Origin: Candidatus Omnitrophota bacterium
Lineage (GTDB): Bacteria > Omnitrophota > Gorgyraeia > Gygaellales > Profunditerraquicolaceae
Assembly (NCBI GenBank): GCA_003598025.1
Contig: QZKH01000003.1
Location: forward strand, 503,221-567,220
Length of the DNA stretch: 64,000 bases
Direction: 5' to 3'
This document shows, piece by piece, positions 5,530-26,393 of the stretch (position 1 is its first letter; each line of letters begins with the position of its first letter). Below the pieces are notes generated by a model. The model did no database searches. It was not told the origin of the DNA and was given only the letters and a program-made list of their open reading frames with translations. The position numbers were made by a program, and so were the translations under genes.

Positions 5530-5704
5530 TATTTAGCAGTCCTTTGTTTGGGAAGAAAATCAAGCTGGCGAAGATGTATGTGGCAGTATTCTCCGTGATT
5601 GTAAATACTCAGAATATGTTTACATAAGGGGACCTTGCATTTTCTACCTTTGCTAGAAATCTTTACTTTTTTGATTTCAGAGCTCCTTTTTTGCCTTCAA
5701 ATGT

Positions 5705-6152: not shown

Positions 6153-6350
6153 TTAACGGCCTTCGTTCTTGCGCTTTGAATAACAATCTTTGCAATATAT
6201 CGGGCGGTCTTCTCTTGGTTTAAACGGGACTTCGCACTCTTTTTTACATTCTGAGCATACTGCCTTATGCATTTCCCTTGGTCCGCCGAATCTACCACCA
6301 TCTTGATACCCCATTTTTCCTCCGTTGGTTTTTTGCTGATGTTTCAGCAT
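6153..6350 (-). CDS. Small zinc-ribbon protein (CxxC-x17-CxxC)
   Basis: CSECKKECEVPFKPREDRPIYCKDCY: two CxxC pairs 17 residues apart; 65 aa, basic. Confidence 0.5.
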   Translation of the reverse strand: MLKHQQKTNGGKMGYQDGGRFGGPREMHKAVCSECKKECEVPFKPREDRPIYCKDCYSKRKNEGR

Positions 6351-6398
6351 TGACTTGTGATTATAGAGCTATTAAGAAAATAAAGCAAGGGTTATTTA

Positions 6399-6581
6399 CT
6401 ATAAAGATGGGTTATCACCGGTAACTTGATTATGCCCGTCTCTTGAGCCATCCGGTAAATCAGCCAGCGGGACGTTCTCCATCGCCTTTTTATTCAATTT
6501 CTTTTGCTTTTTTTCTTCTGCCTTCTTCTTTCTTGCTAGCTCCTTCTGATACTTTTGAAATGAATAATTATCTCTACCCAA
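6399..6581 (-). CDS. Small basic hypothetical protein
   Basis: 60-aa ORF, Lys-rich (KKKAEEKKQKKLNKK); no recognisable motif. Confidence 0.3.
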   Translation of the reverse strand: MGRDNYSFQKYQKELARKKKAEEKKQKKLNKKAMENVPLADLPDGSRDGHNQVTGDNPSL

Positions 6582-6677
6582 GATATTCTCCTTACTGCGC
6601 CTTTAATAGTACGCAATAAAGATTCTACTCTAAAACCTGCGCTATGCAAACTATTTATAACAAAACGGCTATTTATC

Positions 6678-7478
6678 TTAAAGTTTATCAATAAATTCTT
6701 TTATTGCCTTTTTATATTCTGGAAAGGAAATTAAAAAACTTTCATTATGCGGGCCGTTTATAGAAACGATTTTCTTCGGGAAAGAACTAACTCCGTAAAG
6801 TTTTTGAGCAAGTCGGTAAGGCACTATCTCATCCTCTCTGCTGTGTATGAATAATTTAGGCATTTTGGCGCCTCTTACCTTTGCCAGAGAATTATAGCTA
6901 TTTGAGAAAATTATCCTCGGCAGAAATGGATAGATTTCTTTTGCCATATCTTTACCGGAAGAAAAAGCGCCTTCTAAGATAAGCGCCTTTACCTTATTCT
7001 TAGAAGCAAGGTCCACGGCTACGGCTGTTCCCAGCGATTCACCGTATAGAATAACCTCATCGGCTGCAATATTGCGTTTATTTACCAGAAAATGATAGCT
7101 GGCACTTGCGTCTTTATAAAGCCCGGACTCACTGGGCTTTCCTTCACTTTTGCCAAATCCCCGGTAATCAATAATTAAAATGTTCAGGCCAAGCTCATAA
7201 AGCATCCCTATTTTATCAATCCTATCTCCAATATTACCGGCATTTCCATGCAAGAATAAAAGCGTGTATTTGGCTTTAGGGTTTTGCAAGAACCAGCCGT
7301 TTATTTTTAAATTGTCTTCTGTGGTTATCATTATATCTTCGAAAGGAATCCCGGAAGACGAAGGATACGCCAATATATCTTTGGAAGGATAAAATATTCC
7401 TTTATATTCAACATATTTAACGTAAACAAAAACTAAACAAAAAACTGCCAGTATAATTACTAATATTTTATAAAACAT
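6678..7478 (-). CDS. Alpha/beta-hydrolase fold protein (S33/BAAT-like), membrane-anchored
   Basis: N-terminal TM helix, GESLG nucleophile elbow (GxSxG), HG oxyanion-hole motif (FLHGNAG); 266 aa. Confidence 0.75.
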   Translation of the reverse strand: MFYKILVIILAVFCLVFVYVKYVEYKGIFYPSKDILAYPSSSGIPFEDIMITTEDNLKINGWFLQNPKAKYTLLFLHGNAGNIGDRIDKIGMLYELGLNILIIDYRGFGKSEGKPSESGLYKDASASYHFLVNKRNIAADEVILYGESLGTAVAVDLASKNKVKALILEGAFSSGKDMAKEIYPFLPRIIFSNSYNSLAKVRGAKMPKLFIHSREDEIVPYRLAQKLYGVSSFPKKIVSINGPHNESFLISFPEYKKAIKEFIDKL

Positions 7479-7504
7479 ATTAATTAAAGCAATGTCTCCG
7501 CAAC

Positions 7505-8176
7505 CTATCTTACTTTGACTTTACTTATCTTAGCCGGTAGTATAACGATCTCTACCCTTCTATTCTTCTGTTTATTCTCAGGAGAATCGTTAGCAGCCAC
7601 AGGATGAAATTCTCCGTAACCATTTGCTGATAACCTTTGCGGCTCAAGATTGCATTCATCTACAAGATAATGAAGGACCGCAAGAGCGCGGGCAGACGAT
7701 AATTCCCAATTCGTCTTCCACACAGAAAATTTTATTGGATCATTATCAGTATGGCCTTCTATCGCCACGGCAGAATCAGGAACATTCCTATTCAGGACTT
7801 CGGCAACTTTGTTAAGCGTATCTTTGCCATTATCTTTCACCTTGTCTTTACCGGAATCAAAAAATATTTCGGAAACAAAAGTTATTACAAGCCCCCGTTC
7901 GGTCATCTCCAGCTTAGCTTTATAATCACCTATTTCTTTCCTTAGCGCATCCTCTAATTCAAGGTTAGCCTTCTCAAGCTCAGAAAGTTCCTTCTCTTTT
8001 TGTTTGACGACACTCTCAACTTCCCTTGTTTTTTCCTTTTGGAGTTGCGCAATATGAGCCCGTAAATTCTGGTTTTCAATCTCAAGTTCATCAGTCCTCT
8101 TGATTTTCTGAATATAGGCACACCCTGACATGGTAAATATTGCCAAAAACATAATAACCACAAATTTTGCCTTCAT
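7505..8176 (-). CDS. OmpA/MotB-family lipoprotein with coiled-coil linker
   Basis: Lipobox (MSGC), coiled-coil segment, OmpA C-terminal domain signature (EGHTDNDP...NRRVEIVIL). Confidence 0.75.
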   Translation of the reverse strand: MKAKFVVIMFLAIFTMSGCAYIQKIKRTDELEIENQNLRAHIAQLQKEKTREVESVVKQKEKELSELEKANLELEDALRKEIGDYKAKLEMTERGLVITFVSEIFFDSGKDKVKDNGKDTLNKVAEVLNRNVPDSAVAIEGHTDNDPIKFSVWKTNWELSSARALAVLHYLVDECNLEPQRLSANGYGEFHPVAANDSPENKQKNRRVEIVILPAKISKVKVR

Positions 8177-8180
8177 ATGT

Positions 8181-8921
8181 TTAGGCCTCCTTTTCTAAAA
8201 GCAACTCATTTATCGTCACAAACTGATACCCTTTTCCCTGTAAGGTTTCGATAATTATCGGTAATGCTTTCACGATTTGACTTCGATCCGTATTGTTGGA
8301 CAAACGATTGCCATCATGGAGCAATATAATTGATCCATTCCGGACATTGCCCACAACCCTATGCGCAATTTTTCTAGAATGGCTATCCTGCCTGCCGTTT
8401 AAGCCGCTCACTGACCATTTAATAATGGTATAGCCGGAATTCTCTGCCTCTTGTAACACTACATTGTTATCAACACCATAGGGCGGTCTAAAAAGATACG
8501 GTTTTATTCCTGTTGCATCAATAATCGCTTTTTCAGTTTTTCGTATTTGCTGCTTTATCTGCCTCTGATTCTGCAACCTAAGATCCGGATGGTCATAGGT
8601 GTGATTTCCAATTATATGCCCCTCATCCCTAATTCTTTTCGCCAGCTCCGGTAGAACCTCCACATTCTTACCAATCAAGAAAAATGTTGCCCTTATATTG
8701 TATTTCTTGAGAATGTCTAATATCTGTGGCGTATAAATGCTCTGAGGACCATCATCAAAGGTCAAGGCGATCTTGTTTCGAGTTGAATCTCCATGCCAAT
8801 AAACAACACCCTTCCTATTCTTCTTATTATGAAGATTGGCTTCGGCAGTACCCAACATCGCCAAGGAAACAAAACACACACCTAAGAAAATAAAGGTTTT
8901 ACTTAACTGTTTCGCTATCAT
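8181..8921 (-). CDS. Polysaccharide deacetylase (NodB-homology domain), secreted
   Basis: Signal peptide; TFDDGP and HTYDHP catalytic motifs of carbohydrate esterase family 4. Confidence 0.8.
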   Translation of the reverse strand: MIAKQLSKTFIFLGVCFVSLAMLGTAEANLHNKKNRKGVVYWHGDSTRNKIALTFDDGPQSIYTPQILDILKKYNIRATFFLIGKNVEVLPELAKRIRDEGHIIGNHTYDHPDLRLQNQRQIKQQIRKTEKAIIDATGIKPYLFRPPYGVDNNVVLQEAENSGYTIIKWSVSGLNGRQDSHSRKIAHRVVGNVRNGSIILLHDGNRLSNNTDRSQIVKALPIIIETLQGKGYQFVTINELLLEKEA

Positions 8922-8932
8922 TGAATTAATTA

Positions 8933-9880
8933 TTATTTTAAGTTTACCTTATAATTATTTAATTGTTCGAAATATTTATATGCCTGTAATGATATTCTTG
9001 CGATGAATTCTTTGGAAGGAGCGCTGTTCGCATCAGCATGCTTGGTTAATACCACAATGATAAAATCACCGCTGCAAGTAAATACTATGCCCGTATCATG
9101 ACAGACGCCTTTTTCAAGACCGGTTTTATGCGCGACAGTTATCTCAGGTGGCAAATATTTGGGAATACGGTCGTTCATTCGAGCAAGTTTTAAAATACGC
9201 AGACAGCGATCCGAAACTGATTTATTCCCGAGAGCCCTTCTGTATATCTTTTCTAACAATAAGACCATATCTTCAGCTGTAGTATAATTCTCGAGTCCTT
9301 TGTCACGCGAACGATAATCCGCTATTTTGCGGGACAAAAAGGTATTTTGTAGACCAAAGTCCTGAAATGTTTTATTCAAATAGTCAATGCCAAGCAGATC
9401 GGTGAGGATATTGGTGGCAGTATTATCACTGTCATATATCATAAACCCGATAAGCCTGTCAACGCTGAACGACTTGCCCGCAGGCAGATCTTTCAGCATG
9501 CCCGAACCAGTAAGCTTATCAGTAGATTTTAAAGATATATCACGGTTCAACTTGATCAAATTTTGTTCGGCTGCCAAGAAACACCCAGCCATAATAGGGA
9601 TCTTAGCCAGGCTTGCCGAAGGGAACAATTTGGATTTCTGATATGACAACTCCCATCCGGCATGCAAATCTTTTATGACTATTCCCGCTTCACCCTTGAA
9701 TTGGTCTATCTCAGATTTCAAATGCCGCCCTAACTCTTGCCAAGCAGCTCTTCTAACCTGCCGTAAATAAAATTCCTGCCTGGTCTTTTCGGATCTTTCA
9801 AGGTATCGCCTGACTGAATATCCGGCACTCGCCGATAAGATCACAATTGATATTACAAGAATTGTGTTTTTTATTCTCAT
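8933..9880 (-). CDS. Class-A beta-lactamase-related serine hydrolase
   Basis: SxxK (SLAK), SDN (YDSDNTATN) and KTG (HKTGLEKG) motifs in the canonical order; N-terminal TM/signal. Confidence 0.6.
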   Translation of the reverse strand: MRIKNTILVISIVILSASAGYSVRRYLERSEKTRQEFYLRQVRRAAWQELGRHLKSEIDQFKGEAGIVIKDLHAGWELSYQKSKLFPSASLAKIPIMAGCFLAAEQNLIKLNRDISLKSTDKLTGSGMLKDLPAGKSFSVDRLIGFMIYDSDNTATNILTDLLGIDYLNKTFQDFGLQNTFLSRKIADYRSRDKGLENYTTAEDMVLLLEKIYRRALGNKSVSDRCLRILKLARMNDRIPKYLPPEITVAHKTGLEKGVCHDTGIVFTCSGDFIIVVLTKHADANSAPSKEFIARISLQAYKYFEQLNNYKVNLK

Positions 9881-9882
9881 TC

Positions 9883-10281
9883 TTACCGGGATAAATATCT
9901 GTTTAACGCAGCAGAAGTCTTTTTACCAACTATCCCATCGGCTTTCAGCCCTTTGGCTTTTTGAAATTCAATAATGGCTGCCTTGGTTTTAGGCCCGATT
10001 TTTCCGTCAATAGGCCCTTTATAGTAACCGGCATTCTGCAAAGCCCTTTGTATCTGCTTCGAAGTTAATTGCACATTAGAATCCCTATCGGTCTTGCTTG
10101 CTGATTTTTCATAACTACCGACTGACCAGGAATTATCGTAATCATATACTCCCTGCTGATATGACCCCTGGCTGCTGCCGGATGAGACCACCTGTGATGA
10201 ACCATTCTGTTTCTTGGATACGGTGGCACATCCTGCTAAAGCATAAACTAAGAAAAACAATAATATTGGCCTTACCGGCAT
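9883..10281 (-). CDS. Lipoprotein with peptidoglycan-binding domain (PG_binding_1)
   Basis: Lipobox (LAGCAT); LQNAGYYKGPIDGKIGPKTKAAIIEFQKAKGLKADGIVGKKT is a typical PGBD repeat. Confidence 0.7.
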   Translation of the reverse strand: MPVRPILLFFLVYALAGCATVSKKQNGSSQVVSSGSSQGSYQQGVYDYDNSWSVGSYEKSASKTDRDSNVQLTSKQIQRALQNAGYYKGPIDGKIGPKTKAAIIEFQKAKGLKADGIVGKKTSAALNRYLSR

Positions 10282-10392
10282 CTTTTCTCCTCCTTTTTGT
10301 TATCCATACAATCTCCCAAAGATACTACGATCAATTTTGTTTATTGCGCATAGAAAGCACTTCACTAGTTTCTCGAACTTGTTCAGATACAT

Positions 10393-11055
10393 CTAATCAA
10401 AAAGAAATTTATTCAGCTCTGCCCAGGTTTTCGGGCCCACTACACCATCTACTTTAATTTTATTTGCCTTCTGAAAAGCCCTTATAGCAGTTTTGGTCCT
10501 TGGGCCGATCCTTCCGTCTACCTCCCCTTTATAGAATCCGGTGTTTTTAAGGGCTATTTGAATTTGCTTTGATCTGTTATTTGATTCAGGGTTATGGCTT
10601 TTAACCGCTTCCCGTGATTCAATTTTATCAACTGTATGGCTACCCCCTTCATTCGCTGACGCGCTTTTATCCTTTAAAGCGGTTAGTGGTACTTCGATTT
10701 TTATTATAGGTATATTATTGCCTGATTCCTTTTCTCTGGTTAATGCCAGATGCGTGGCTGCATCGATCCTGCCAGTAGGCTTCAATTTTTTGTCTTTCTG
10801 AAAATTCCTGATTGCCAGCCTGGTTTGAGCACCCATAGTTCCGTCTATAACACCGGGGTCAAAGCCGGCCTCTTTTAAGACCTTTTGAATTTCAACCACC
10901 CGCGGGTTATATCCTGATACTTTCCCGATTATCTGATATTCAGGCTCTCCCCACTTATCCCGGTACAATAAATGATTAATATAGCCCCTCACAGGAGCAA
11001 AAAATATCGTGAATATAAATAAGCAGGTTAGAATATAAAGAAATAACTTAACCAT
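10393..11055 (-). CDS. Membrane-anchored protein with two peptidoglycan-binding domains
   Basis: N-terminal TM; two PGBD-like segments (LKEAGFDPGVIDGTMGAQTRLAIRNFQKDKKLKPTGRID and LKNTGFYKGEVDGRIGPRTKTAIRAFQKANKIKVDGVVGPKT). Confidence 0.7.
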   Translation of the reverse strand: MVKLFLYILTCLFIFTIFFAPVRGYINHLLYRDKWGEPEYQIIGKVSGYNPRVVEIQKVLKEAGFDPGVIDGTMGAQTRLAIRNFQKDKKLKPTGRIDAATHLALTREKESGNNIPIIKIEVPLTALKDKSASANEGGSHTVDKIESREAVKSHNPESNNRSKQIQIALKNTGFYKGEVDGRIGPRTKTAIRAFQKANKIKVDGVVGPKTWAELNKFLFD

Positions 11056-16143: not shown

Positions 16144-16326
16144 ACTATTTCTCCTTGATAAAAATGTGACCGCCCCCTTTATTCGACACAGAAGGTGTCG
16201 CACTTGGCTTTCCAATAGGCCAATGTGCATTTTATGCCGTAGTAAGCAAGCCTTCAATCATCTAATAAGCCCCTACGGGGCGGGATGCCCCGACTCTTGC
16301 GGGCAGTGCTTCAAAACTAAACCTTT

Positions 16327-16395
16327 GGCGGGGCGCGGCCCCCACCCCGCGCCCCGCCTAGCGCTATCTTTTCAAAAAACTGGCGAAAATTTTAG
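16327..16395. repeat. Left copy of a 69-bp inverted repeat containing a 12-bp GC hairpin (IR-L)
   Basis: ggcggggcgcgg-cccccacc-ccgcgccccgcc hairpin plus the AT-rich arm tagcgctatcttttcaaaaaactggcgaaaattttag. Its reverse complement occurs at 23159-23227 with one indel. It abuts the stop codon of the OLD-like gene and probably also acts as its terminator. Confidence 0.8.
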
Positions 16396-18362
16396 GGATC
16401 GGCTAAACTTACAATTCTGCTTATAATATCAGTTAAGGTTTTGCTCCCTGCTTTTTGGCTTTTTGCGCACTCCATTAATTGATACAAAAAATACGGTTGT
16501 TTTTCGCCGATTTTTAGAGATTCTACTTCGGCTTTGCATATTTTATAAATTTCTTCGGACAACTCTTTTTTTAATTGTGCTGGCAAGTTTTCTTCAAAAC
16601 ATGCAAAAAGTTTTTCTACTCTAGTAGTAGGAAAATCTTCTTCTGTGACACCACCCAATTTTAAAAGAGCTCTATTATATTTGGTATTGCAATCTTTACT
16701 ACTGCTTTCGCATTTTTTATCTCCATCAAATAAAAAATATACTGGAATATCGAGTTCACGAAATATAAGGACACACCTATCAATATTCGTTTTGCCTCCA
16801 ATAGGTATTACGGTAATCCCTTTCCCTTCTAGGTCACCTGGATTTTTCAAGGTTCCAAATAAAACTGCTTTATCGGCTTCGCCTTCGACTATTACAACTG
16901 CATCTGCAAAAAAACCTTCATTAACATAAGGGGTCAAAAGTGAGATTAACCGCGCTTTTAATGATGCGGCGGTAAAACCTTCTTTCTGTTTTCCAAATAT
17001 TTCTTCCAACTCTTTGGTTATTTTATCTAAATTCATCTTTTTGACTTTTGTTTCTGGAATTGCCCCTCCTGCAATATTCTTTCTGGCCCTTCTTATTTTT
17101 TCTACCCTATCTAAACCAATAAAATGAGGAGAGTGTGTTGAATAAATAATCTGCATCTCATAATCTCGCTCAGGAGAAGGTTGCGCTAGCTCCAACAATA
17201 CTCTGGATATATGCCTTTGTCTAACTGGATGTTGATATAATTCTGGCTCTTCTATGGCGAGTATAAAATTAGGCCTTATTTCAACTATTTCTCCCTTTCG
17301 CTCTCCTTCTTCGTCTTTGGCTTCTTCTTCGGCTTGTTCTTTTTGCGAATCATCAACATGCCGAGCTATACTTAAATGTTGCAGCAACGTCATTATAAAG
17401 GCTCTTTGCAAACCATGCCCCTTTTTTGAAATATCTCCCTCAAAATTATCCTCAATCAATTTTACATATGCTTGCGGAAGCGGTATTTCTAAGTCTTCTT
17501 TTTCTTGCCAGTTTAATACTACGCCAGCTGATTGAACAAACTTTCTTAAAGTATCATTCAGTTCTTTCTGTAATTTTGGTAGTTCTGGTAATTTCTCAGG
17601 ATTAGTTAATTCTTTATACTTTTTTATGGTCTCTTCCTTAAATGCTAATAGCTCGGGTTTTCGCTCAATTTCTTTCTTAACGACTAACTGTAAGAGCTCA
17701 GTTATTATATTCCCTTTGGTCTCGGTTGCATCTAAATTTGCATCTCTTACAGCTGGTATAAAAATGAACCTAGTAAATCTTTCAAGCTTTCCAACACCTA
17801 CATTCCGAAAACCAAAAAATTGTCCATCATCTTTTATGCGCCTTAGCTTATCCAAATGCTCTTTTTCCCAAGCTGCCAAATTCGCCTCAATCCCATCTGC
17901 ACTTGATACCGTTGGCAAAGTATTGAATTCAGGCGTACTTCTTAACTCATTATATTTGGTCCTTTTGTCTGATTTCTGAATAGCTGTTCTTATTTCTTGA
18001 AAGTCAGGATACTGTAGTTTTGATCCGTAATATCTTTCTTGTGAAGTAACTCCATTAAACCCAATCTCTTTTTCGATCGTCAAAGTTCCTCTATCAATAT
18101 ATGGCGCAAACTCCTCAAGCTCATATTCTGTTAATTTATAAAACTTAATTATAATTCTTATTGGTTTGCTTGTGTCTTTATTGTAAAAATCTTCCTCATT
18201 AACTGTTAACGACTTCACCGTGTTATAAAATAGGTTGAGGGCTTGCAAAAATGTTGATTTTCCCGAGCCATTCGGACCTATCAGAATAGTTAAATCCTCA
18301 AAAGTAAGTGTTTCCTCCCTTATAGATCTGTAATTTAATACTGAGATTTCTTCAATAATCAT
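16392..18362 (-). CDS. OLD-family (overcoming lysogenization defect-like) ABC-type ATPase + Toprim nuclease-domain protein
   Basis: N-terminal Walker A GPNGSGKST; ABC signature-like GHGLQR; Walker B/D-loop ILAIEEPELYQHP; H-loop YSTHSP. C-terminal Toprim motifs: VIVEGEADK (ExxD) and YFLFDGDKK (DxD). 656 aa. Confidence 0.8.
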   Translation of the reverse strand: MIIEEISVLNYRSIREETLTFEDLTILIGPNGSGKSTFLQALNLFYNTVKSLTVNEEDFYNKDTSKPIRIIIKFYKLTEYELEEFAPYIDRGTLTIEKEIGFNGVTSQERYYGSKLQYPDFQEIRTAIQKSDKRTKYNELRSTPEFNTLPTVSSADGIEANLAAWEKEHLDKLRRIKDDGQFFGFRNVGVGKLERFTRFIFIPAVRDANLDATETKGNIITELLQLVVKKEIERKPELLAFKEETIKKYKELTNPEKLPELPKLQKELNDTLRKFVQSAGVVLNWQEKEDLEIPLPQAYVKLIEDNFEGDISKKGHGLQRAFIMTLLQHLSIARHVDDSQKEQAEEEAKDEEGERKGEIVEIRPNFILAIEEPELYQHPVRQRHISRVLLELAQPSPERDYEMQIIYSTHSPHFIGLDRVEKIRRARKNIAGGAIPETKVKKMNLDKITKELEEIFGKQKEGFTAASLKARLISLLTPYVNEGFFADAVVIVEGEADKAVLFGTLKNPGDLEGKGITVIPIGGKTNIDRCVLIFRELDIPVYFLFDGDKKCESSSKDCNTKYNRALLKLGGVTEEDFPTTRVEKLFACFEENLPAQLKKELSEEIYKICKAEVESLKIGEKQPYFLYQLMECAKSQKAGSKTLTDIISRIVSLADP

Positions 18363-18409
18363 TTAGTTCCTTTATCCATAAAATCCTTTAACTGCCAATT
18401 TCTTAGTTT

Positions 18410-19171
18410 TTAACAATAACCTTCTGTTTCTTTTATCGCTTTGCTATATAAACAATAATCACAGTCTTTGCTATGTCCAGGCACCTTAGGGTTCATCAGG
18501 CATTTATGCATTTCAACTATTACAGGATCAATCCAAGAGCTATTTCCTTCATAAGAAATAATTTTAATGTTAAACTCAAGCTTTGCATCAAAACTTTCCT
18601 TGTTGGTATTTCCATTACAATATACAAAGTAACCGGTAGAAGAAACATTAAAATCGTTTTTCCTGAATAACCACTGATATATTTCCATTTGTCTTTTATA
18701 AGATACCTGCCAATCTGCATCTAAGTTTACCTCTTCCTCTTTGGACGTGCTCTTATAATCTACGATAAAAAGTTGGCCTTCTGATCCGGCCCAGACATCA
18801 TCCACGGCTCCTGAAAGCAAAAGATTAGTTTGCGGATGTAAATATTCTATTCCGCCACGAAGAGCATCTCGCCAGAGATTTAACTTTTCATGTTGAAAAG
18901 GAACAGCCTTTATTCCATAGGTTTGCATAAGGGGGTGGGGCGTTTGTTTACTTCTATGCAAATCGAATTCTTTCTTAAGTAATTTATCCACCGCAGAATT
19001 CAAAGCAAAGGGAAATCCTGGAGGCTGCCCCACTCCTAGTCTTCTATCAAGATAAAAACAGCGTGGACAGTTAATAAATAGCTCGATTTTAGAACGGCTT
19101 ATCTTGAATGGTAATTTATTAAGCGGATCAAATAGATTCCGCGTTCTTCTTCCAGAATAGTATTTTGACAT
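18410..19171 (-). CDS. Cas4/RecB-like PD-(D/E)xK nuclease with 4-Cys (Fe-S) cluster
   Basis: Motifs GAVDDVWA and LFIVDYKST (motif II/III: D...hhDYK), QMEIY (RecB-family QxxxY), one N-terminal Cys (CPRC) and C-terminal CDYC: the Cas4/AddB-type Fe-S arrangement. 253 aa; 48-nt gap to the OLD-like gene. Confidence 0.75.
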   Translation of the reverse strand: MSKYYSGRRTRNLFDPLNKLPFKISRSKIELFINCPRCFYLDRRLGVGQPPGFPFALNSAVDKLLKKEFDLHRSKQTPHPLMQTYGIKAVPFQHEKLNLWRDALRGGIEYLHPQTNLLLSGAVDDVWAGSEGQLFIVDYKSTSKEEEVNLDADWQVSYKRQMEIYQWLFRKNDFNVSSTGYFVYCNGNTNKESFDAKLEFNIKIISYEGNSSWIDPVIVEMHKCLMNPKVPGHSKDCDYCLYSKAIKETEGYC

Positions 19172-19209
19172 TTTAAGCCTTTGAATAACCTATGAAACAA
19201 ACTCGGCTG

Positions 19210-19422
19210 CTAACAAATCCTATTTTGTCTATAAACCTTATAAATATTTCTGCTGGCATAACTGCCCTTTGAATTAGCGGAACACAGCGCATCGTAGATA
19301 TGTTGGGGTACGTTAAAATACTCATAAAGTGAACCGTCTTTAAACTCTATTTGCAAGATTGCACTATCAGAATCATATCCTATAGAAGCTAAAGTTGAGG
19401 AATTAACAGAAATCATATCCAC
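19210..19422 (-). CDS. KTSC-domain small protein
   Basis: 70 aa; STLASIGYD...ILQIEFKDGSLYEYFNVPQHIYDAL matches the KTSC (lysyl-tRNA synthetase C-terminal-like) fold pattern. 38-nt gap to the downstream nuclease gene. Confidence 0.55.
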   Translation of the reverse strand: MDMISVNSSTLASIGYDSDSAILQIEFKDGSLYEYFNVPQHIYDALCSANSKGSYASRNIYKVYRQNRIC

Positions 19423-19517
19423 CTTTCTTTCTCCTTTTTGATATGTTTTTCCTCTATGAGAACTGCTGCCATGAAACTATTTCTACTTTTTAAGAATTAG
19501 AAATATCTATGTATTAA

Positions 19518-20339
19518 TTATTCCTTTTGAAAATCATTTACTATTGTAAAAATTAAAGCCACGGTTGCAGAAGCAGTAGCCTTAGAAATAGTGTATTTTT
19601 TACTCTTTTCTGCAGCTAAATGTACCGAGTTTCTAAATCGTCTAATTGCTGAAGCCAAATTACTGATCTCTTCTTTTAAAAAACCTTTTTTTTGACATAT
19701 TTCAATTAGTTCTTCAAATCTTTTATTCTTCACATTTTCATTTTTATTATCTAGGAATAATCTTAGCAATTCCTCTATCACTCCACCAGCCAAAATTACA
19801 GCTGGTTTATTAAAATCATTTCTGGCTAAAAAATAGGCTTGTTCAACGTCTCTAAAAATAATTTCTCTTCTAAATTGGCTTTTAACAAAGTTAATATTTT
19901 TCCCAAATACACGCTTGCTTATTCCAAAGTCTTTTTTTATTCCATCCCAATAATTCTTATTTTCGGCTTGTTTCTTTTTTCTTGAAGATCGGGCATGCAG
20001 CCATGAAGAGCTCTCGGGTTGTGGGCCATCTTCACAATACCAACCTTCACTATAATCTAGATATTCTGAAGGACAATCAAGCCGATCAGTTATTGCTACT
20101 CGAAAGGAAATAGCATCTAAGTCTTTGTAACGCGCTGGGCTAAAATCAGAAACCCTACCTTCCCAACAGCCTTCTATCTTTCGAGTTTCACGATTTCTTT
20201 TTATAAATACCGTATTGGTATTGGCTACTAATTTCCCCTCATTCATAGGGTGACGGAACATTGATTTAGTAAAAAACGCTCTGTTATCTGGTAGCTGATC
20301 CCAATGACCCCGCCAATTTGTTACCATTATGTATTTCAT
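19518..20339 (-). CDS. Hypothetical protein with possible C-terminal HEPN-like domain
   Basis: 273 aa. The C-terminal helical region contains AIRRFRNSVHLAAE, compatible with the HEPN Rx4-6H motif. The N-terminal domain is unrecognised. First gene of the minus-strand operon. Confidence 0.35.
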   Translation of the reverse strand: MKYIMVTNWRGHWDQLPDNRAFFTKSMFRHPMNEGKLVANTNTVFIKRNRETRKIEGCWEGRVSDFSPARYKDLDAISFRVAITDRLDCPSEYLDYSEGWYCEDGPQPESSSWLHARSSRKKKQAENKNYWDGIKKDFGISKRVFGKNINFVKSQFRREIIFRDVEQAYFLARNDFNKPAVILAGGVIEELLRLFLDNKNENVKNKRFEELIEICQKKGFLKEEISNLASAIRRFRNSVHLAAEKSKKYTISKATASATVALIFTIVNDFQKE

Positions 20340-20559
20340 ATTGGCCCCTTCTTAAAATTAATCTTAATATAAATTAAGGCAACCTCCTATTCTAGAGAAT
20401 CGCCTTATGTTTTAGTATTCAAACCCCCATTCCCCACCTCTTTGTGCTGGGAATTATTATACTACCATTCTAAGCAATATTAAGCTTTTTTCTTAGAAAT
20501 TTATGTTAGATTTTGCCATTTATTGCGTCTATTACATTAAAGGTAGATAAACAATTTTC

Positions 20560-20617: not shown

Positions 20618-22150
20618 ATGCTTACAAAACGCAAAAAACAAATATTAGACTTCCTGAAAGACTATATAAATAAACATCGCTATTCGCCCTCCCTAGAAGA
20701 AATAAAAAAACATTTCCGATTATCTTCTGTAGCCACGATTCATTACCATATACGCCAATTACAAGAGATGGGGTATTTAGACAAAATGAATAACCATCCT
20801 AGAACAATAGATGTCTCAATGGAACAAAAGTTAATACGAATTCCGATTCTTGGTACTATTGCGGCCGGGCAACCCATTGAGGTAATTGAAAACAAAGAAA
20901 GCATCGCCATCCCCCAAAGCAAAATTAATTCTAACGATGAATATTTTGCATTACGAGTAATTGGAAATAGCATGATAGATGAAAATATAAATGAAGGGGA
21001 TATTATCTTAGTAAGAAGACAATCAGTAGCTGAAAATGGACAAAAGATAGTTGCGCTTATTGATAATTATAAAGCGACTCTAAAAAAATTCTATAAAGAA
21101 AGAGGACATATTAGACTTCAGCCTGCAAATAAATTCCTTGAGCCAATTATTATAGATAAGAAGAGCGAATTTGTTATACAAGGCGCAGTAGTTGATGTTA
21201 TAAAGAATACTGCCTCCGAACCCCTAACTATTACACCTCCAATTAAAGATAAGCCCAAAAAACATGATAAATTGCCCTTAAACAAAATTATTTGTGGGGA
21301 TGCCCTTGAAGAGATTAGAAAGATTCCGGATGAATCCTGTCATGTTATTATTGCTGATCCTCCTTATAATATTGGTAAAGATTTCGGCAATAACCTAGAT
21401 AAAAGAGATTTGGGAGAATATATTGCATGGTGTAAAACTTGGATTAATGAATGCGCCAGAATAATGAAACCCCGCGCTACAATGTTTATCTATGGATTCA
21501 GCGAAATCTTAGCTTATTTATCTGTTGAGATTCCCCTAAACCGGAGATGGCTAATTTGGCATTATACTAATAAAAACGTGGCCTCTCTCCAATTCTGGCA
21601 AAGGAGCCATGAAGCAATTATCTCTTGCTGGAAAGATGATCCTGTTTTCAATAGGGATGATGTACGAGAACCTTATACTGAAGGATTCTTAAATGGAGCG
21701 GCTGGCAAAGTTAGGGCAGGAACCGCAGGACGATTTAGCCGAAATGGAAAAGAAACTATTTATAAAGCGCATGAAGCGGGAGCGTTGCCTAGAGATGTTA
21801 TTAAAATCCCTGCATTAGCCGGAGGCGCTGGCATGACCGAACGATGGTTTTTATGCAAAACCTGTGATAACGTTTTTAAGCCAGATGCCCTTAAGAAACA
21901 TATTAACCATGATATAATAAAACACCCAACACAAAAACCTTTGGAGCTCTCGGGAAAGCTAATTAAGTCATCGATACCTAAGAATGGCGGCATAGTATTG
22001 GCTCCTTTTGCCGGGGTAGGCTCGGAATGCGTAGCAGCTAAACAACTTGGACTAGCTTACATCGGAATTGAGCTTAATCCTGAGTATATTAGGATTGCAA
22101 ATAAAAGGTTGGATAGTATTGAAGTGCAGGATACCCTCAAATTATTCTAA
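20618..22150 (+). CDS. Full-length LexA repressor (wHTH + S24 peptidase) fused to a beta-class N6-adenine/N4-cytosine DNA methyltransferase
   Basis: Residues 1-200 align to LexA throughout: the HTH region, the AAGQP Ala-Gly cleavage site (E. coli VAAGEP), Ser in RVIGNSM and Lys in YKATLKKF. Residues 210-510 carry the N6_N4_Mtase signatures DPPY (motif IV), then HPTQKP and LAPFAGVGSE (motif I) in the beta-class order. Confidence 0.8.
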   Translation: MLTKRKKQILDFLKDYINKHRYSPSLEEIKKHFRLSSVATIHYHIRQLQEMGYLDKMNNHPRTIDVSMEQKLIRIPILGTIAAGQPIEVIENKESIAIPQSKINSNDEYFALRVIGNSMIDENINEGDIILVRRQSVAENGQKIVALIDNYKATLKKFYKERGHIRLQPANKFLEPIIIDKKSEFVIQGAVVDVIKNTASEPLTITPPIKDKPKKHDKLPLNKIICGDALEEIRKIPDESCHVIIADPPYNIGKDFGNNLDKRDLGEYIAWCKTWINECARIMKPRATMFIYGFSEILAYLSVEIPLNRRWLIWHYTNKNVASLQFWQRSHEAIISCWKDDPVFNRDDVREPYTEGFLNGAAGKVRAGTAGRFSRNGKETIYKAHEAGALPRDVIKIPALAGGAGMTERWFLCKTCDNVFKPDALKKHINHDIIKHPTQKPLELSGKLIKSSIPKNGGIVLAPFAGVGSECVAAKQLGLAYIGIELNPEYIRIANKRLDSIEVQDTLKLF

Positions 22151-22848
22151 TCGTAAAGCGCCTTCTCTTCTTCAAAAATTGTTGGCGTAAAAACTGTAAA
22201 ACCATTTTTTAGAATCTTGATCTTCCCTGTATCTAACCAATCAGCCTTAAACTCACTATAAGCCTTTTTAAACCCACCCTTCTTTTTATTAGGATCTAGA
22301 AGCATGTCAAAATTTGGAACTTTGTAGACGATTTTAATAAATTTTCCATAAAGTTGCTTTTTGGGCTTCTTTTCCGCCCTTACCTCTCTGCTAAAAGTCT
22401 CTTTTTTAACCTGGTAATTCAACTTTTTCCCTTTATAAGTAACTCTAAAGTCAGCTCCTTGATGATCTAATTCTGAAGACATCTCTACAGATTTTTCTCC
22501 AAAAACCGCTTCGGCTACGTAACCAGCATGAATTTGAGTAATAATACTCGCCCAAGTACGGTAAATCCTCGCAGGCAGACCTTTATAAAAACAGGTTTTG
22601 CACATTTGGGTCTTATTACGAAACAATTCTAGATTCTTACGGTATAGTTTCCTATATTCTTCATAGAACTGCTCGTAAGAGATAACCTTTCTTTTATCCC
22701 AATATATCTTATAAAGCAAATCTAATGCCTGGATTTCTCTAGGTAAATCCATTTCAACTATTTTAATGGGCATGAATTTCTTACGATAGTTGCCCAAATC
22801 AACAATCTCTAAAAACTTTTCAAATTGCTCGTTGTCCATTTTAGCCAT
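22147..22848 (-). CDS. Putative Type II restriction endonuclease (partner of the methyltransferase)
   Basis: No family signature. Inferred from position (directly downstream of a C-protein gene, convergent with and overlapping the MTase 3' end by 4 nt) and a possible PD-(D/E)xK-like ELDHQGADF...YQVKK segment. Confidence 0.4.
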   Translation of the reverse strand: MAKMDNEQFEKFLEIVDLGNYRKKFMPIKIVEMDLPREIQALDLLYKIYWDKRKVISYEQFYEEYRKLYRKNLELFRNKTQMCKTCFYKGLPARIYRTWASIITQIHAGYVAEAVFGEKSVEMSSELDHQGADFRVTYKGKKLNYQVKKETFSREVRAEKKPKKQLYGKFIKIVYKVPNFDMLLDPNKKKGGFKKAYSEFKADWLDTGKIKILKNGFTVFTPTIFEEEKALYD

Positions 22849-22857
22849 ATTTTCTCA

Positions 22858-23067
22858 CTATAATAATTCTTTTACAGAAACATTAAGCGCTTTTGCAAGC
22901 TTAGCGATATTCTTAAGCGCAACGTTTCTTTTCCCGCATTCAATCTGTCCAATATATGTCCGGTGTAAATCGGCTAATTCCGCAAGTTTCTCTTGGGAGA
23001 GATTCTTCTTGAGGCGATATTTACGCACCTTAGCACCAAATTGTTCTAGAATTAATGCCATATTCAT
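22858..23067 (-). CDS. R-M controller (C) protein, XRE-family HTH
   Basis: 69 aa; LSQEKLAELADLHRTYIGQIECGKRNVALKNIAKLAKALNV is a canonical XRE/Cro-C1 HTH of C-protein size. Located immediately upstream of the putative REase gene on the same strand. Confidence 0.65.
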   Translation of the reverse strand: MNMALILEQFGAKVRKYRLKKNLSQEKLAELADLHRTYIGQIECGKRNVALKNIAKLAKALNVSVKELL

Positions 23068-23158
23068 CTTTCCTTTATTGACAATATTATATAATTATGT
23101 TATATTTAAGTCTACAGAATCCGAGTAACATTATTATAAACAAAAAATGTTCCCTCCC

Positions 23159-23227
23159 CTAAAATTTTCGCCAGTTTTTTGAAAAGATAGCGCCAGGCGG
23201 GGCGCGGGGTGGGGGCCGCGCCCCGCC
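23159..23227. repeat. Right copy of the 69-bp inverted repeat (IR-R)
   Basis: Reverse complement of 16327-16395 with a single indel (cagg vs ctagg). Weaker similarity extends about 60 bp further outward on both copies. Confidence 0.8.
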
Positions 23228-23716
23228 CAAGCATTTTCTGAAGCACTGAACGCAAGAGGCGGGGCAAAGCGCCGTCCGTATAGTTTTAGCTTGTATCAGG
23301 CGCTGCGGCCGAGCTTCTTCCTAAAAAAATTTTGTTTTTAAGGGCTAAATTGAGCTAAAGCGAGGACGCACGCCGCGACCCTGGATTTTTTTATTGTTGT
23401 AGCGACGAGCCACGCCGAACACGCACTGCATTACCACGAAGCGAGCGGCCCAGCGAGCGCCATTGCCCGCTCAATGTGGGAGCGCCCCCCCAGGGCGCGG
23501 TGCATTTAAGCTGTTTCCTTAGAGGCCGGCTTTACCCCGGTATTAGAAAACAAAAACGGCAAGAGGCGGGGCAGAGTTTAGATATAGCAGCTGAGGTTCT
23601 TTCCGGGAAAATTTTGTTTGCAGGGCGCGGGGATAAGGAGATGTTTCAGGGCTTTACCCCGGGATGCACCTTGCCCAAAAGGATGGGCAAGTGCCCGGCT
23701 TTCTGCCGGGAGTTTC
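23160..23716. repeat. GC-rich repetitive non-coding spacer
   Basis: About 560 bp of more than 60 % GC in an AT-rich genome. Contains recurring motifs gggcgcgg, ctttaccccgg and caagaggcggggca, each present 2-3 times, and a perfect hairpin ggacccca-tttctaaa-tggggtcc at about 23752-23777 just inside the recombinase 3' end. The ORFs here (e.g. 23476..23781) look spurious. Confidence 0.5.
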
Positions 23717-25594
23717 TCAGGGACGAAAATGCTTTCGATCTATCGGATACAAGGACCCCATTTCTAAATGGGGTCCCATAAGTTCCCCTGTGCGAACACC
23801 TAGATTGCTATAATACTTTTTACCTGAACCGGCTAACGGAACCCCGTCGCACGAGGAAGTTTCTCTTTTCTTATAAGCTTTTGTTCCAAACTTGCCACTA
23901 ATCTCTTCTAAAGCTTTATTATTATAACACTCATCGGCTATTTTTTGTAACGTTTTATTCCATATTTCAGCATTTTGACCTCTACTAAAAGGACGACCGA
24001 ATAACCCGATCTTGAGCTTGCCAATCCCTTTTTTCTTGTCAGCGATTTCGCAGATAACCGAATTAATTATTCTTGGTAAAATTGCCTGAATACGCTCCCT
24101 ATTATTTTTATTCATCATATAAAAATCTTCAAATAACTGTAATGTCATAATGTAGTCATGAGCTGTCCCGGCCTGTACCTTTTCTGCTTGAATTTCTGAT
24201 TTCAGTCTGTTTTCTTCTAAAACTAGCTCAGACTCATCTTGATTTAAAGTCCCTAGTTTCTCCTTAACCATATCGATTCCTGCCAGCCCTTTATCTGTGA
24301 GTATATCCACTAAATTTGCAATTTTTGTACGAATATCTTTTAGGCTTGCCTGAACTCTATCCAAATCTTCTTCCAAAATTCCTATTGTTGATGCAGTTGC
24401 CTGGTTTGCTTTTTTTACGATTTCGGCGATATTCTCCGGATCTAAATGTAAATTCCGCAGCACCTCGATGATTGCATCGTCTACAGCATCTGCAGCCAAA
24501 AGATTAACTTCTCCACAATCAATACCATTAGTCTTAAATGCTTTCATGCACATATAATAGGGATAATATTTACCGCCTTTACCGGTAGCCGGCCTTGTAA
24601 TCATGGTCGACCCGCAATTACTACATTTAAGCAGGCTTTTGGTAAGGTAAACGTAATTACGATTTGAGCCATTGGGACCGTGATTGGTTGTTCTGTTTCT
24701 TTTTAAGACCGCTTGGATTGTTTTATGAACATCCTCACTCCTTATGGGTTCCCAGTTCCCGGTATAAATCTGACCATTGTGCTCCTGCTTTGCAATATAG
24801 CGAATATTCTGAAGAATACGCGATACTTGAGGTTTTGAATATGTTTTCCCATGTTTAGATTTATAACCTTTTTGGTGCAAAATATCAACAACCTTACCTG
24901 CACTTTTCACTCTCAGGTATAATTGATCAATAAATTCAACATGCTTTCTATAAACAGGATCGGGCACATAGGTAGTCTTACCATTAATATCTTTATTTGT
25001 TCGATAACCTAATGGTGGCGGACCTATTGGCCGGCCCTGATTAAGATGTCTTATAACAGTTTCTAAACTATATTGCGATATCCGTTCTGCTTGCCATTGG
25101 GCAAGATTAGCGTGATTACGCATAATCATCTGCCCGTCAGGCGTTGATGTATCTATATCAAGATCTAGACAGACAAGCGCAACCTCATTCTCGTTAAATT
25201 CAGCTGAAATATCTATATAGTCTCTTGTGTTTCTTGCTATACGATCCAGTTTTGTTACTACAACAACATCAATAAGCCTTAATTTAGCAAGTTCAAGGGC
25301 TTTAGCTAATCCTCTTCTGCCTTCACGCTTTGTTGCAGTGCGCCCTTTTCTCTGTCCGTCCGGGCCTTCGTTTTCTACGAATATATCGATAAGCTCCCAT
25401 TTTTGAGGCGCATGCAGACTTGATTTAGACTTCACCCAATTCTTAAGGACTTCTTTCTGATGATCTAATGATTCGCCTATCTTCTGCGCCTGCTTGTCTG
25501 TTGAAACGCGGGCAATGCCAAAAACACGGACAACCTTTGCATCCTTAAAGCTATAAACAGTTGTAACTCTTCTCCAAGATATCTTTTCAGCCAT
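23717..25594 (-). CDS. Large serine recombinase (resolvase/invertase N-terminal domain + recombinase domain + zinc ribbon + coiled coil)
   Basis: Catalytic-Ser region GIARVSTDKQ near the N-terminus, recombinase domain, zinc ribbon CSNCGS...YYPYYMC, long C-terminal coiled coil; 625 aa. Confidence 0.85.
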   Translation of the reverse strand: MAEKISWRRVTTVYSFKDAKVVRVFGIARVSTDKQAQKIGESLDHQKEVLKNWVKSKSSLHAPQKWELIDIFVENEGPDGQRKGRTATKREGRRGLAKALELAKLRLIDVVVVTKLDRIARNTRDYIDISAEFNENEVALVCLDLDIDTSTPDGQMIMRNHANLAQWQAERISQYSLETVIRHLNQGRPIGPPPLGYRTNKDINGKTTYVPDPVYRKHVEFIDQLYLRVKSAGKVVDILHQKGYKSKHGKTYSKPQVSRILQNIRYIAKQEHNGQIYTGNWEPIRSEDVHKTIQAVLKRNRTTNHGPNGSNRNYVYLTKSLLKCSNCGSTMITRPATGKGGKYYPYYMCMKAFKTNGIDCGEVNLLAADAVDDAIIEVLRNLHLDPENIAEIVKKANQATASTIGILEEDLDRVQASLKDIRTKIANLVDILTDKGLAGIDMVKEKLGTLNQDESELVLEENRLKSEIQAEKVQAGTAHDYIMTLQLFEDFYMMNKNNRERIQAILPRIINSVICEIADKKKGIGKLKIGLFGRPFSRGQNAEIWNKTLQKIADECYNNKALEEISGKFGTKAYKKRETSSCDGVPLAGSGKKYYSNLGVRTGELMGPHLEMGSLYPIDRKHFRP

Positions 25595-25891: not shown

Positions 25892-25943
25892 AGCCTCATT
25901 TCTTTACTACTATTTCTTTAATATTTTCTTTAAAAGCTTTACA

Positions 25944-26006
25944 GGGGTTAGTTGACCCCCAAAAATAGGGGCTAATTCACCCCTTATGTGGGGGTAATTT
26001 GGCCCC
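25944..26006. repeat. Three iteron-like GGGG-N8/9-CCCC hairpin units
   Basis: ggggttagttgacccc (25944-25959), ggggctaattcacccc (25968-25983) and gggggtaatttggcccc (25990-26006), spaced about 22-24 bp apart and overlapping the 3' end of the replication-organizer-like gene. Confidence 0.45.
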
Positions 26007-26393
26007 TTCGATATTACGAGTTTTCCACAGCTGCCAGGTTGTGTGATTCGGATTTAAAGCAAGTCTGTTTTTACGGCCATCCTTGCTTTTGATAATGACC
26101 TTGGACTGAATAAGCAGATTGATCGTTCTTCTGACATTGCGCTTGTTGAGATTTGTCTCTTTTGCGATATAGCCGTAACTAAGAAGCTTGTTTTCTTTAT
26201 GCCAGCCGCTGGTCATCCGGATTACAAAAATAATAACCCGGATCTCTGTGCCATTGAAAGGCGACCTGTAAATAGCGCGCAAAACATTATTAGAGATCTT
26301 TGTGTAGCCCCCAATATTCTGAAATAAAGTTTCTGTCATAGTAAAAGGCAACAAAAAAGGGGCTGGCATTCCTGAGAGTTTCCTCAGAAACAC
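25977..26393 (-). CDS. Winged-helix DNA-binding protein resembling the phage replisome-organizer / replication-initiator N-terminal domain
   Basis: The pattern ISNNVLRAIYRSPFNGTEIRVIIFVIRMTSGW...LSYGYIAKETNLNKRNVRRTINLLIQSKVI is typical of Phage_rep_org_N-type wHTH domains. The true start is probably the internal MTETLFQN. Confidence 0.45.
   Translation of the reverse strand: MFLRKLSGMPAPFLLPFTMTETLFQNIGGYTKISNNVLRAIYRSPFNGTEIRVIIFVIRMTSGWHKENKLLSYGYIAKETNLNKRNVRRTINLLIQSKVIIKSKDGRKNRLALNPNHTTWQLWKTRNIEGAKLPPHKG

Follow-up and report, generated by a model that had tools for sequence, protein, structure and literature searches.

We analysed a 64,000-nucleotide (nt) stretch of an Omnitrophota genome (contig QZKH01000003.1, positions 503,221 to 567,220; hereafter the window), with emphasis on four consecutive minus-strand genes, here termed A to D, which encode a HEPN-like protein, a KTSC-domain protein, a Cas4-like nuclease, and an OLD-family protein, respectively. 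An earlier note on this DNA had taken them for a single four-component defence operon. The four open reading frames (ORFs) and the gaps separating them (95, 38, and 47 nt for A-B, B-C, and C-D, respectively) are as described in that note, and sequence profiles, together with a predicted fold, bear out its identification of the OLD protein, the KTSC protein, and the HEPN-like C-terminus of A. Comparison of related loci indicates that the four genes are not one conserved system and that gene A is independent of the other three. Our best explanation, to which we give about an even chance as a whole, is a mosaic island holding three independent modules: a restriction-modification (R-M) system with a LexA-methyltransferase fusion, the solitary gene A, and a KTSC-Cas4-like-OLD block, the last being a class 1-like OLD module to which KTSC is accessory and a Cas4-family nuclease a facultative partner. 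The KTSC partner of OLD is previously unreported; in our literature search no paper linking KTSC to OLD was found. The genes concerned, with protein lengths in amino acids (aa), are as follows.

16392-18362, minus strand: gene D, 656 aa, OLD-family ATP-dependent nuclease (ABC ATPase and Toprim), class 1-like
18410-19171, minus strand: gene C, 253 aa, Cas4/Dna2/RecB-type PD-(D/E)xK nuclease with four invariant cysteines
19210-19422, minus strand: gene B, 70 aa, KTSC-domain protein (PF13619, E 2e-24), candidate OLD accessory subunit
16409-19445, minus strand: three-gene block KTSC-Cas4-like-OLD, delimited by its blastn match to locus L081
19518-20339, minus strand: gene A, 273 aa, separate module with an N-terminal YTH/EVE/ASCH-like and a C-terminal HEPN domain, probably R-M-associated

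The OLD protein and its KTSC companion

The gene D product has the architecture of the OLD family, an N-terminal ABC ATPase (Walker A/B, H-loop) fused to a C-terminal Toprim domain with conserved acidic residues. It matches the Pfam families AAA_15 (E 2.7e-43) and OLD-like_TOPRIM (5e-17), its best PADLOC model is 'Old' (9e-62), and it carries the Walker A motif GPNGSGKS and the Toprim motifs VEGEAD and DGD. Residues G29-S36 (Walker A), E371-E374, H410, E493/E495/D497, and D546/D548 are invariant among 26 homologues. When the profile built from these homologues was compared with solved structures, the best match was the class 1 OLD of T. scotoductus (TsOLD; 6P74, E 9e-42), while GajA (3e-7), class 2 Toprim domains, and Eco8 OLD were matched weakly. 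The protein is thus class 1-like as judged by sequence. Its relatives are at most 47% identical and spread over many phyla; a metagenome scan with the window OLD protein returned no relatives.

The three-gene block was found twice, in the window and in L081, a 97-kb Omnitrophota contig in which positions 7681-10745 give a 3088-nt blastn match at 83% nucleotide identity, and in which the KTSC, Cas4-like, and OLD proteins are 84%, 90%, and 87% identical to those of the window. The flanks of the L081 block (an IS240 transposase upstream and an SLFN/AlbA_2 ATPase downstream) are unlike those of the window, and the block was therefore kept together while its surroundings changed.

Within the window-type OLD clade, which comprises 13 distinct loci with an OLD at least 36% identical, the window and L081 included, KTSC is the commoner partner (6 of 13 loci versus 2 of 13 for the Cas4-like nuclease). 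The KTSC gene stands upstream of OLD in all six, directly adjoining it in four and separated from it by the Cas4-like gene in the window and L081. In L165, L166, L184, and L187, the gene for a 70-aa KTSC protein lies 7-8 nt upstream of OLD, and the pair (at ~3.8-7.0 kb in each locus) is located downstream of the gene for the SNF2 helicase HmaA (SNF2/NOV_C); HmaB (DUF1156 methylase) is encoded directly after the pair in three of these loci, its place in L184 being taken by an element of the IS21 type. These pairs look like an uncatalogued Hma-embedded module. L165 additionally encodes an ATPase similar to HEC-01A. On the viral contig L174, a KTSC gene is found directly downstream of a 28%-identical OLD, overlapping its stop codon. 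In a neighbour-joining tree, the OLDs linked to KTSC are spread over three separate branches, and KTSC was found nowhere else in the OLD loci.

The assignment of gene B to the KTSC family is secure (85.4 bits against a PF13619 cutoff of 25). Among solved structures, it matches a 70-aa KTSC protein (7X8C, 1e-13) and also the C-terminus (residues 632-696) of HerA from the Paenibacillus SIR2-HerA system (8WIV, 2e-10). These HerA residues belong to a 'C-terminal arm' that stabilises the split-spiral hexamer (PMC11472057); the authors of 8WIV do not name the KTSC domain at this position. A separate KTSC gene directly follows HerA in the SIR2-HerA loci L089 and L199, on a Sulfitobacter plasmid, and on a Bradyrhizobium plasmid, and this stand-alone KTSC, often the next gene after SIR2-HerA, is a split form of the domain fused in 8WIV. 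The coordinates of SIR2-HerA with the KTSC gene after it are 2811-6756 in L089, 914-4210 in L199, 1473-4710 in L205, and 1502-4710 in L206. Iyer et al. (2022) mentioned, as an unpublished observation, HerA-like ATPases accompanied by a DNA-binding KTSC protein and an endoDNase (PMC9503650). KTSC recurs as a companion of defence NTPases. PADLOC 2.0 contains no KTSC model, and its models recognised nothing in gene A. KTSC sequences diverge too much in their alignment to allow a pattern scan, and scans with single proteins yielded few loci. On a Deinococcus aquaticus plasmid (L207), a KTSC gene overlaps a gene for a 309-aa hypothetical protein (4501-5642), and 0.5 kb from this pair lies a convergent, Gabija-looking pair encoding a UvrD helicase and an AAA ATPase (6177-9204).

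The Cas4-like nuclease and its neighbourhoods

The gene C product, matched in Pfam by PDDEXK_1, has the characteristics of a PD-(D/E)xK nuclease of the RecB/Cas4/Dna2 type, namely the D...(D/E)xK and QxxxY motifs, a restriction-endonuclease-like fold, and a cysteine cluster, and its catalytic residues are intact. The earlier note was right about the nuclease motif and the presence of four cysteines, whereas the canonical Cas4 arrangement of the latter was not found: C35, C38, C237, and C240, invariant in 166 of 166 sequences, form a CX2C...CX2C pattern in place of the C...CX2CX5C of Cas4. A CRISPR-associated Cas4 was rejected as its identity, the match to TIGR00372 (31.2 bits) being below the cutoff of 65, with no CRISPR array in the window and no cas genes among the neighbours of the Cas4-like gene in 162 loci. 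Sequence searches of the PDB with the protein and with its profile gave chance-level matches only, so that recourse to fold comparison was necessary.

A homologue search yielded at least 8000 matches, all significant, and a context sample of 162 loci (1.67 Mb) was assembled. Searching all ORFs of this sample with hidden Markov models revealed exactly four OLD-family genes (in L081, L061, L038, and L079), and all four directly adjoin the Cas4-like gene on the same strand. They represent three OLD subfamilies and both gene orders, and besides the Omnitrophota block, in which the Cas4-like gene precedes OLD (L081), the pair occurs in three Patescibacteria loci. In L061, a 537-aa Old-type gene preceded by a C-AlwI-MTase R-M system overlaps the Cas4-like start by 8 nt. 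In L038, 5 nt separate the stop codon of a 531-aa Old-type gene from the Cas4-like start, an EcoRI-type methyltransferase and GmrSD/HNH being encoded before the pair and AbiV after it. In L079, a gene for a 600-aa ATPase-Toprim protein, located after a ResIII helicase gene, is 3 nt from the Cas4-like gene. The L061 and L038 OLDs share 45% identity, and both are 24-30% identical to the L079 and window OLDs. With chance adjacency at ~0.22 per gene (~2 neighbour slots of ~9 genes per locus), the observed adjacency has a p of ~0.002 for four events, or ~0.01 if L061 and L038 represent one event. The Cas4-like gene also forms a pair with KTSC in L082 and L089; in L089, where it starts 6 nt after the KTSC stop codon, the pair follows SIR2-HerA, and in L083 the Cas4-like gene comes after a gene for a HerA-like ATPase. 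Since the three pairwise links recur independently and the trio occurs twice, a functional network is supported, with KTSC-OLD as its commoner core. The pairing of OLD with a Cas4-like nuclease, which the earlier note did not recognise as an established system, indeed corresponds to no catalogued one, PADLOC giving only 'Old' and weak Cas4 models.

Several observations weigh against this view. Approximately 95% of the Cas4-like homologues have housekeeping surroundings with neither OLD nor KTSC nearby, and one copy, 82% identical to that of the window, lies between FTHFS and SUI1. The OLD-linked Cas4-like proteins are scattered among unlinked ones and form no distinct clade. From the side of OLD, 7 of the 13 loci of the window-type clade have neither a KTSC nor a Cas4-like gene, and a Cas4-like gene is missing from all 11 loci other than the window and L081. 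A single event may lie behind the four Hma-embedded KTSC-OLD pairs, and the samples behind the pairwise links are small. These genomes are compact, and short distances between genes are usual in them, also between Cas4-like genes and their housekeeping neighbours; tight OLD-Cas4-like spacing (-8 to +3 nt) is for this reason weak evidence, and we discarded it as a sign of coupling. A separate sub-lineage of Cas4-like copies dedicated to defence islands was rejected on account of the 82%-identical housekeeping copy and the scatter of the OLD-linked ones. The dedicated effector that the earlier note had seen in the nuclease is difficult to reconcile with a family of which ~95% is solitary among housekeeping genes, and the outcome of the neighbourhood comparison, on which that note had let its proposal depend, is accordingly divided: the contexts are mostly of the housekeeping kind, yet the linkage to OLD does recur, in the four adjoining OLDs, that of the L081 block among them.

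Because most contexts are housekeeping and the OLD-linked copies form no clade of their own, a housekeeping repair enzyme is nearly as likely an account of the nuclease as a facultative partner of OLD. The corresponding explanation of the locus, possible but clearly short of an even chance, is that KTSC and OLD are the whole unit, or that OLD works by itself like any class 1 nuclease, with the Cas4-like protein as an incidental repair nuclease next to which defence genes often insert or which hitch-hiked into the island. It is favoured by the sheer size of the Cas4-like family, whose members are 60-90% identical across Omnitrophota and Patescibacteria, and by neighbourhoods that are not conserved. 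The most frequent cluster of neighbours is seen in 11 of 80 loci, and a Pfam census assigned 148 immediate neighbours to 136 families, for the most part of the housekeeping type (HtrA-like proteases, FtsW, glycosyltransferases, and EF-Tu-type GTPases are examples), although three Omnitrophota loci (L090, L002, and L003) have a PeptM50-Cas4-like-beta-lactamase-MscS synteny in common, which likewise suits a housekeeping gene. The direct contact of KTSC with OLD in the Hma-embedded loci, where no nuclease is present, points the same way, as does the vicinity of lexA, which in 5 of 80 genome loci is no more than ~6 kb away from the Cas4-like gene. What this explanation accommodates poorly is that four of four OLDs in Cas4-like loci, from three subfamilies, are immediate neighbours of the nuclease gene, that the window copy, flanked by KTSC and OLD, is part of the low-GC island and travelled together with these two genes as one block into another context (L081), and that the KTSC-Cas4-like adjacency recurs after SIR2-HerA.

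The five loci with a nearby lexA are L027, L051, L055, L073, and L080, and in L027, L051, and L080 the distance is ~2.5 kb or less; this proximity, somewhat above expectation for a single-copy gene, hints at a DNA-repair role of the nuclease family. The Cas4-like protein is nearly absent from viral contigs (2 loci), and its reading as a phage recombination exonuclease was dropped for that reason.

Proposed mechanism and relation to known defence systems

In the favoured reading of the block as OLD joined by an accessory KTSC protein and, facultatively, by a nuclease, OLD would act as an ATP-dependent DNA nickase/exonuclease, as P2 Old and TsOLD do, and the 70-aa KTSC protein would be an accessory subunit, serving in DNA binding or as an assembly adaptor. 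A comparable role may be played by the C-terminal KTSC domain of HerA in SIR2-HerA systems. As a facultative third partner, the Cas4-family nuclease might resect DNA nicked by OLD or otherwise extend degradation; alternatively, it might supply a RecB-family activity whose inhibition OLD monitors. The latter option is considered because P2 Old is known from the literature to kill recBC cells and to be triggered by loss of RecBCD or by its inhibitors.

A stronger proposal, which we regard as rather unlikely, is that the three proteins of the block make up a tripartite antiphage system that is complete in itself and would define a further class of OLD. KTSC would then be a portable adaptor, for DNA binding or assembly, common to two unrelated defence NTPases, OLD and HerA, and the RecB-family nuclease would provide in cis the activity with which OLD cooperates or which it guards. 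If this were true, the RecBCD-linked trigger logic of P2 Old would be transferable to hosts without RecBCD. At the other extreme, and improbable in our estimation, the four genes could be unrelated single-gene elements piled up in a hotspot of defence genes and mobile elements, with adjacencies devoid of functional meaning. The mosaic make-up of the island, with its module boundaries, inverted repeats, and recombinase, and the insertion sequence (IS) elements of its relative would agree with such an accumulation, as would the definition of class 1 OLDs as stand-alone genes (PMC10568477); against it speak the independent recurrence of all three pairs and the lack of further partner genes in the rest of these loci.

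Among characterised systems, class 1 OLDs (P2 Old, T. scotoductus OLD 6P74, and Vibrio cholerae OLD) are the closest by sequence match, and the window resembles them in having no helicase, retron, or split AriB. It differs in the KTSC gene found upstream in 6 of the 13 loci of its clade, the other 7 OLDs being solitary, and its OLD is ~130 aa longer than TsOLD. SIR2-HerA systems (Paenibacillus 8WIV and the HerA variants with KTSC and an endoDNase) likewise combine a defence NTPase with KTSC, either fused or encoded by the next gene, and sometimes with a DNase, and in L089 the SIR2-HerA-KTSC genes are followed by the same Cas4-like gene. The NTPase of the window, in contrast, is an OLD ABC ATPase-Toprim protein and not a hexameric HerA translocase, and no sirtuin accompanies it; no HerA-type ATPase was found in the window, whereas one is present in L089, L199, L205, and L206.

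Gabija (GajA with the UvrD-like GajB) also couples an OLD-family ATPase-Toprim protein to a second DNA-processing protein, but GajA models match the window OLD at ~1e-28 as compared to 9e-62 for 'Old', and the partners here are KTSC and a PD-(D/E)xK nuclease. Gabija and other class 2 OLDs were rejected, the neighbours of OLD being the Cas4-like gene and a metallo-beta-lactamase-rhodanese gene, with no helicase encoded between 12 and 26 kb. PARIS (AriA with AriB, Toprim/DUF4435) shares the AAA_15-type ABC ATPase, and the AriA model matches the ATPase part (3e-46); PARIS, or class 4 OLD, was rejected in view of the fusion of ATPase and Toprim in one 656-aa ORF and the lack of AriB. A retron (class 3 OLD) was rejected as well, with no reverse transcriptase domain among the neighbours and no Rfam match between 15.5 and 26.5 kb. 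By gene content, the locus is thus not a catalogued Gabija, PARIS, or retron variant. Hma-embedded candidate defences (HEC), among them the ATPase-Toprim fusion HEC-04, have been described (Payne et al., 2024, preprint). Relatives of the window OLD, accompanied by KTSC, are placed in Hma systems in the manner of HEC, whereas the window copy lies outside any Hma system and KTSC occurs in no HEC or PADLOC model. From Cas4 and from ACE1, an Argonaute-associated enzyme of the Cas4 family, the window nuclease differs in the lack of cas genes and of a CRISPR array in the window, in its sub-cutoff TIGR00372 score, in its CX2C...CX2C pattern, and in belonging to a mostly solitary family.

Class 1 OLD nucleases are the least understood class, with a trigger still to be established (PMC10568477). 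If conserved, the 70-aa KTSC partner would offer a concrete handle on their targeting or regulation and would join two defence families, OLD and SIR2-HerA, through a common accessory module. With a RecB/Cas4-type nuclease coupled to OLD sporadically but not at random, the connection between Old and RecBCD can be tested in a minimal cassette. Should the links prove incidental, what is left is a class 1 OLD in a defence island of the ordinary kind.

Gene A and the mosaic island

The gene A product has a predicted HEPN fold, a four-helix up-down bundle with the Rx4-6H motif, and in addition an N-terminal YTH/EVE/ASCH-like domain missed in the earlier note, which resembles readers of modified bases. 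The part shared by ~430 homologues is the C-terminal HEPN domain (invariant FRNxVH), their N-termini being many and different. Of the full-length relatives, one that is 88% identical comes after a type III R-M system (L192, 5025-5840) and another, 67% identical, after a type I R-M system accompanied by DarTG (L193, 6001-6783). The window copy is divergent from, and adjacent to, a system composed of a controller (C) protein, a TaqI-like restriction endonuclease, and a methyltransferase. Because the homologues follow R-M systems and the window copy adjoins an R-M module, gene A is best read as an R-M-associated accessory gene outside the OLD module. A scan of viral contigs with gene A found nothing, and in the A/LexA-methyltransferase intergenic region and the A-B gap, a search for LexA-box-like operators found only AT-rich palindromes with inconsistent spacing.

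The four-component operon of the earlier note, with OLD as ATPase sensor and nuclease and RNase effectors, appears very improbable and largely refuted by the comparative data, for although all four are encoded on one strand at distances of 38-95 nt, a scan showed no terminator-like site between them, and the only strong minus-strand promoter-like sites lie upstream of A (20483-20456), no gene A homologue was found in any of the ~200 loci collected around Cas4-like, OLD, or KTSC genes, L081 has the other three genes without A, the homologues of A have their place after R-M systems of types III and I, and blastn splits the A module (ending at ~19480-19489) from the three-gene block (from 19445), the two being joined within ~35 nt. 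The neighbours named in that note, the R-M module and a large serine recombinase, are present; the R-M module and gene A are separate modules of the mosaic and belong to no operon with the three-gene block. The other features of the island are as follows.

16286-16397: left arm of an inverted repeat, with a 12-bp GC hairpin, overlapping the last codon and the stop codon of OLD
20618-22150, plus strand: LexA (helix-turn-helix (HTH) and S24 peptidase) fused to an N6/N4 DNA methyltransferase (LexA_DNA_bind, Peptidase_S24, N6_N4_Mtase; TIGR00498 lexA, 2.4e-53)
22147-22848, minus strand: TaqI-like type II restriction endonuclease (PF09573, 4.5e-32; PADLOC REase_II)
22858-23067, minus strand: R-M controller (C) protein (HTH_3; PADLOC Control_protein, 3.9e-25)
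23157-23266: right arm of the inverted repeat, resembling a terminator if read inward
23717-25594, minus strand: large serine recombinase (Resolvase, Recombinase, Zn_ribbon_recom)
25977-26393, minus strand: Phage_rep_O-like HTH protein, replication/initiator-like (PF04492, 1.3e-15)

The sequence features described here mark the region as a mosaic mobile defence island of ~10 kb. Matches to the N6_N4_Mtase, RE_TaqI, and Control_protein models identify a type II R-M system with a controller. The seven defence genes lie in a low-GC stretch (0.33-0.36 versus ~0.41), and a 112-nt inverted repeat (102/112 identities, 91%; blastn E 1e-36) brackets exactly these. The repeat contains a perfect 12-bp GC hairpin (fold of -28 kcal/mol, z -2.4, for the left arm), and ~440 nt of GC-rich degenerate repeat copies (23273-23716) separate its right arm from the serine recombinase gene. 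The inner 33 nt of the right arm are found again behind another defence cassette, where contig L192 breaks off, and L083 shares 51 nt of the GC-rich spacer. The Rfam search gave no match in this region, and the GC-rich repeats are therefore not a known RNA. From their distribution, the inverted repeat and spacer look like a dispersed boundary element, and the repeat may be a recombination or boundary element of Omnitrophota defence cassettes.

The LexA part of the methyltransferase fusion is complete, with the AAG site and the serine motif GNSM kept, and a similar fusion occurs in L027 (31% identity over 531 aa). Through such a fusion, the SOS response could be coupled to methylation by the R-M system or to its regulation. 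The window (20494-20539) and L081 (4664-4709) have a 46-nt element in common at 85% identity, which lies upstream of methyltransferase genes in both, though their R-M systems differ, and may be a shared regulatory site. Between an 84-aa ORF and the Phage_rep_O-like gene, a 14-nt tandem repeat is present in 2.7 copies (ATTTCTTTAATACT, 25898-25933), which could represent iterons or an origin of the island. Further along the window, a single giant ORF of 6541 aa occupies positions 30184-49809 on the minus strand.

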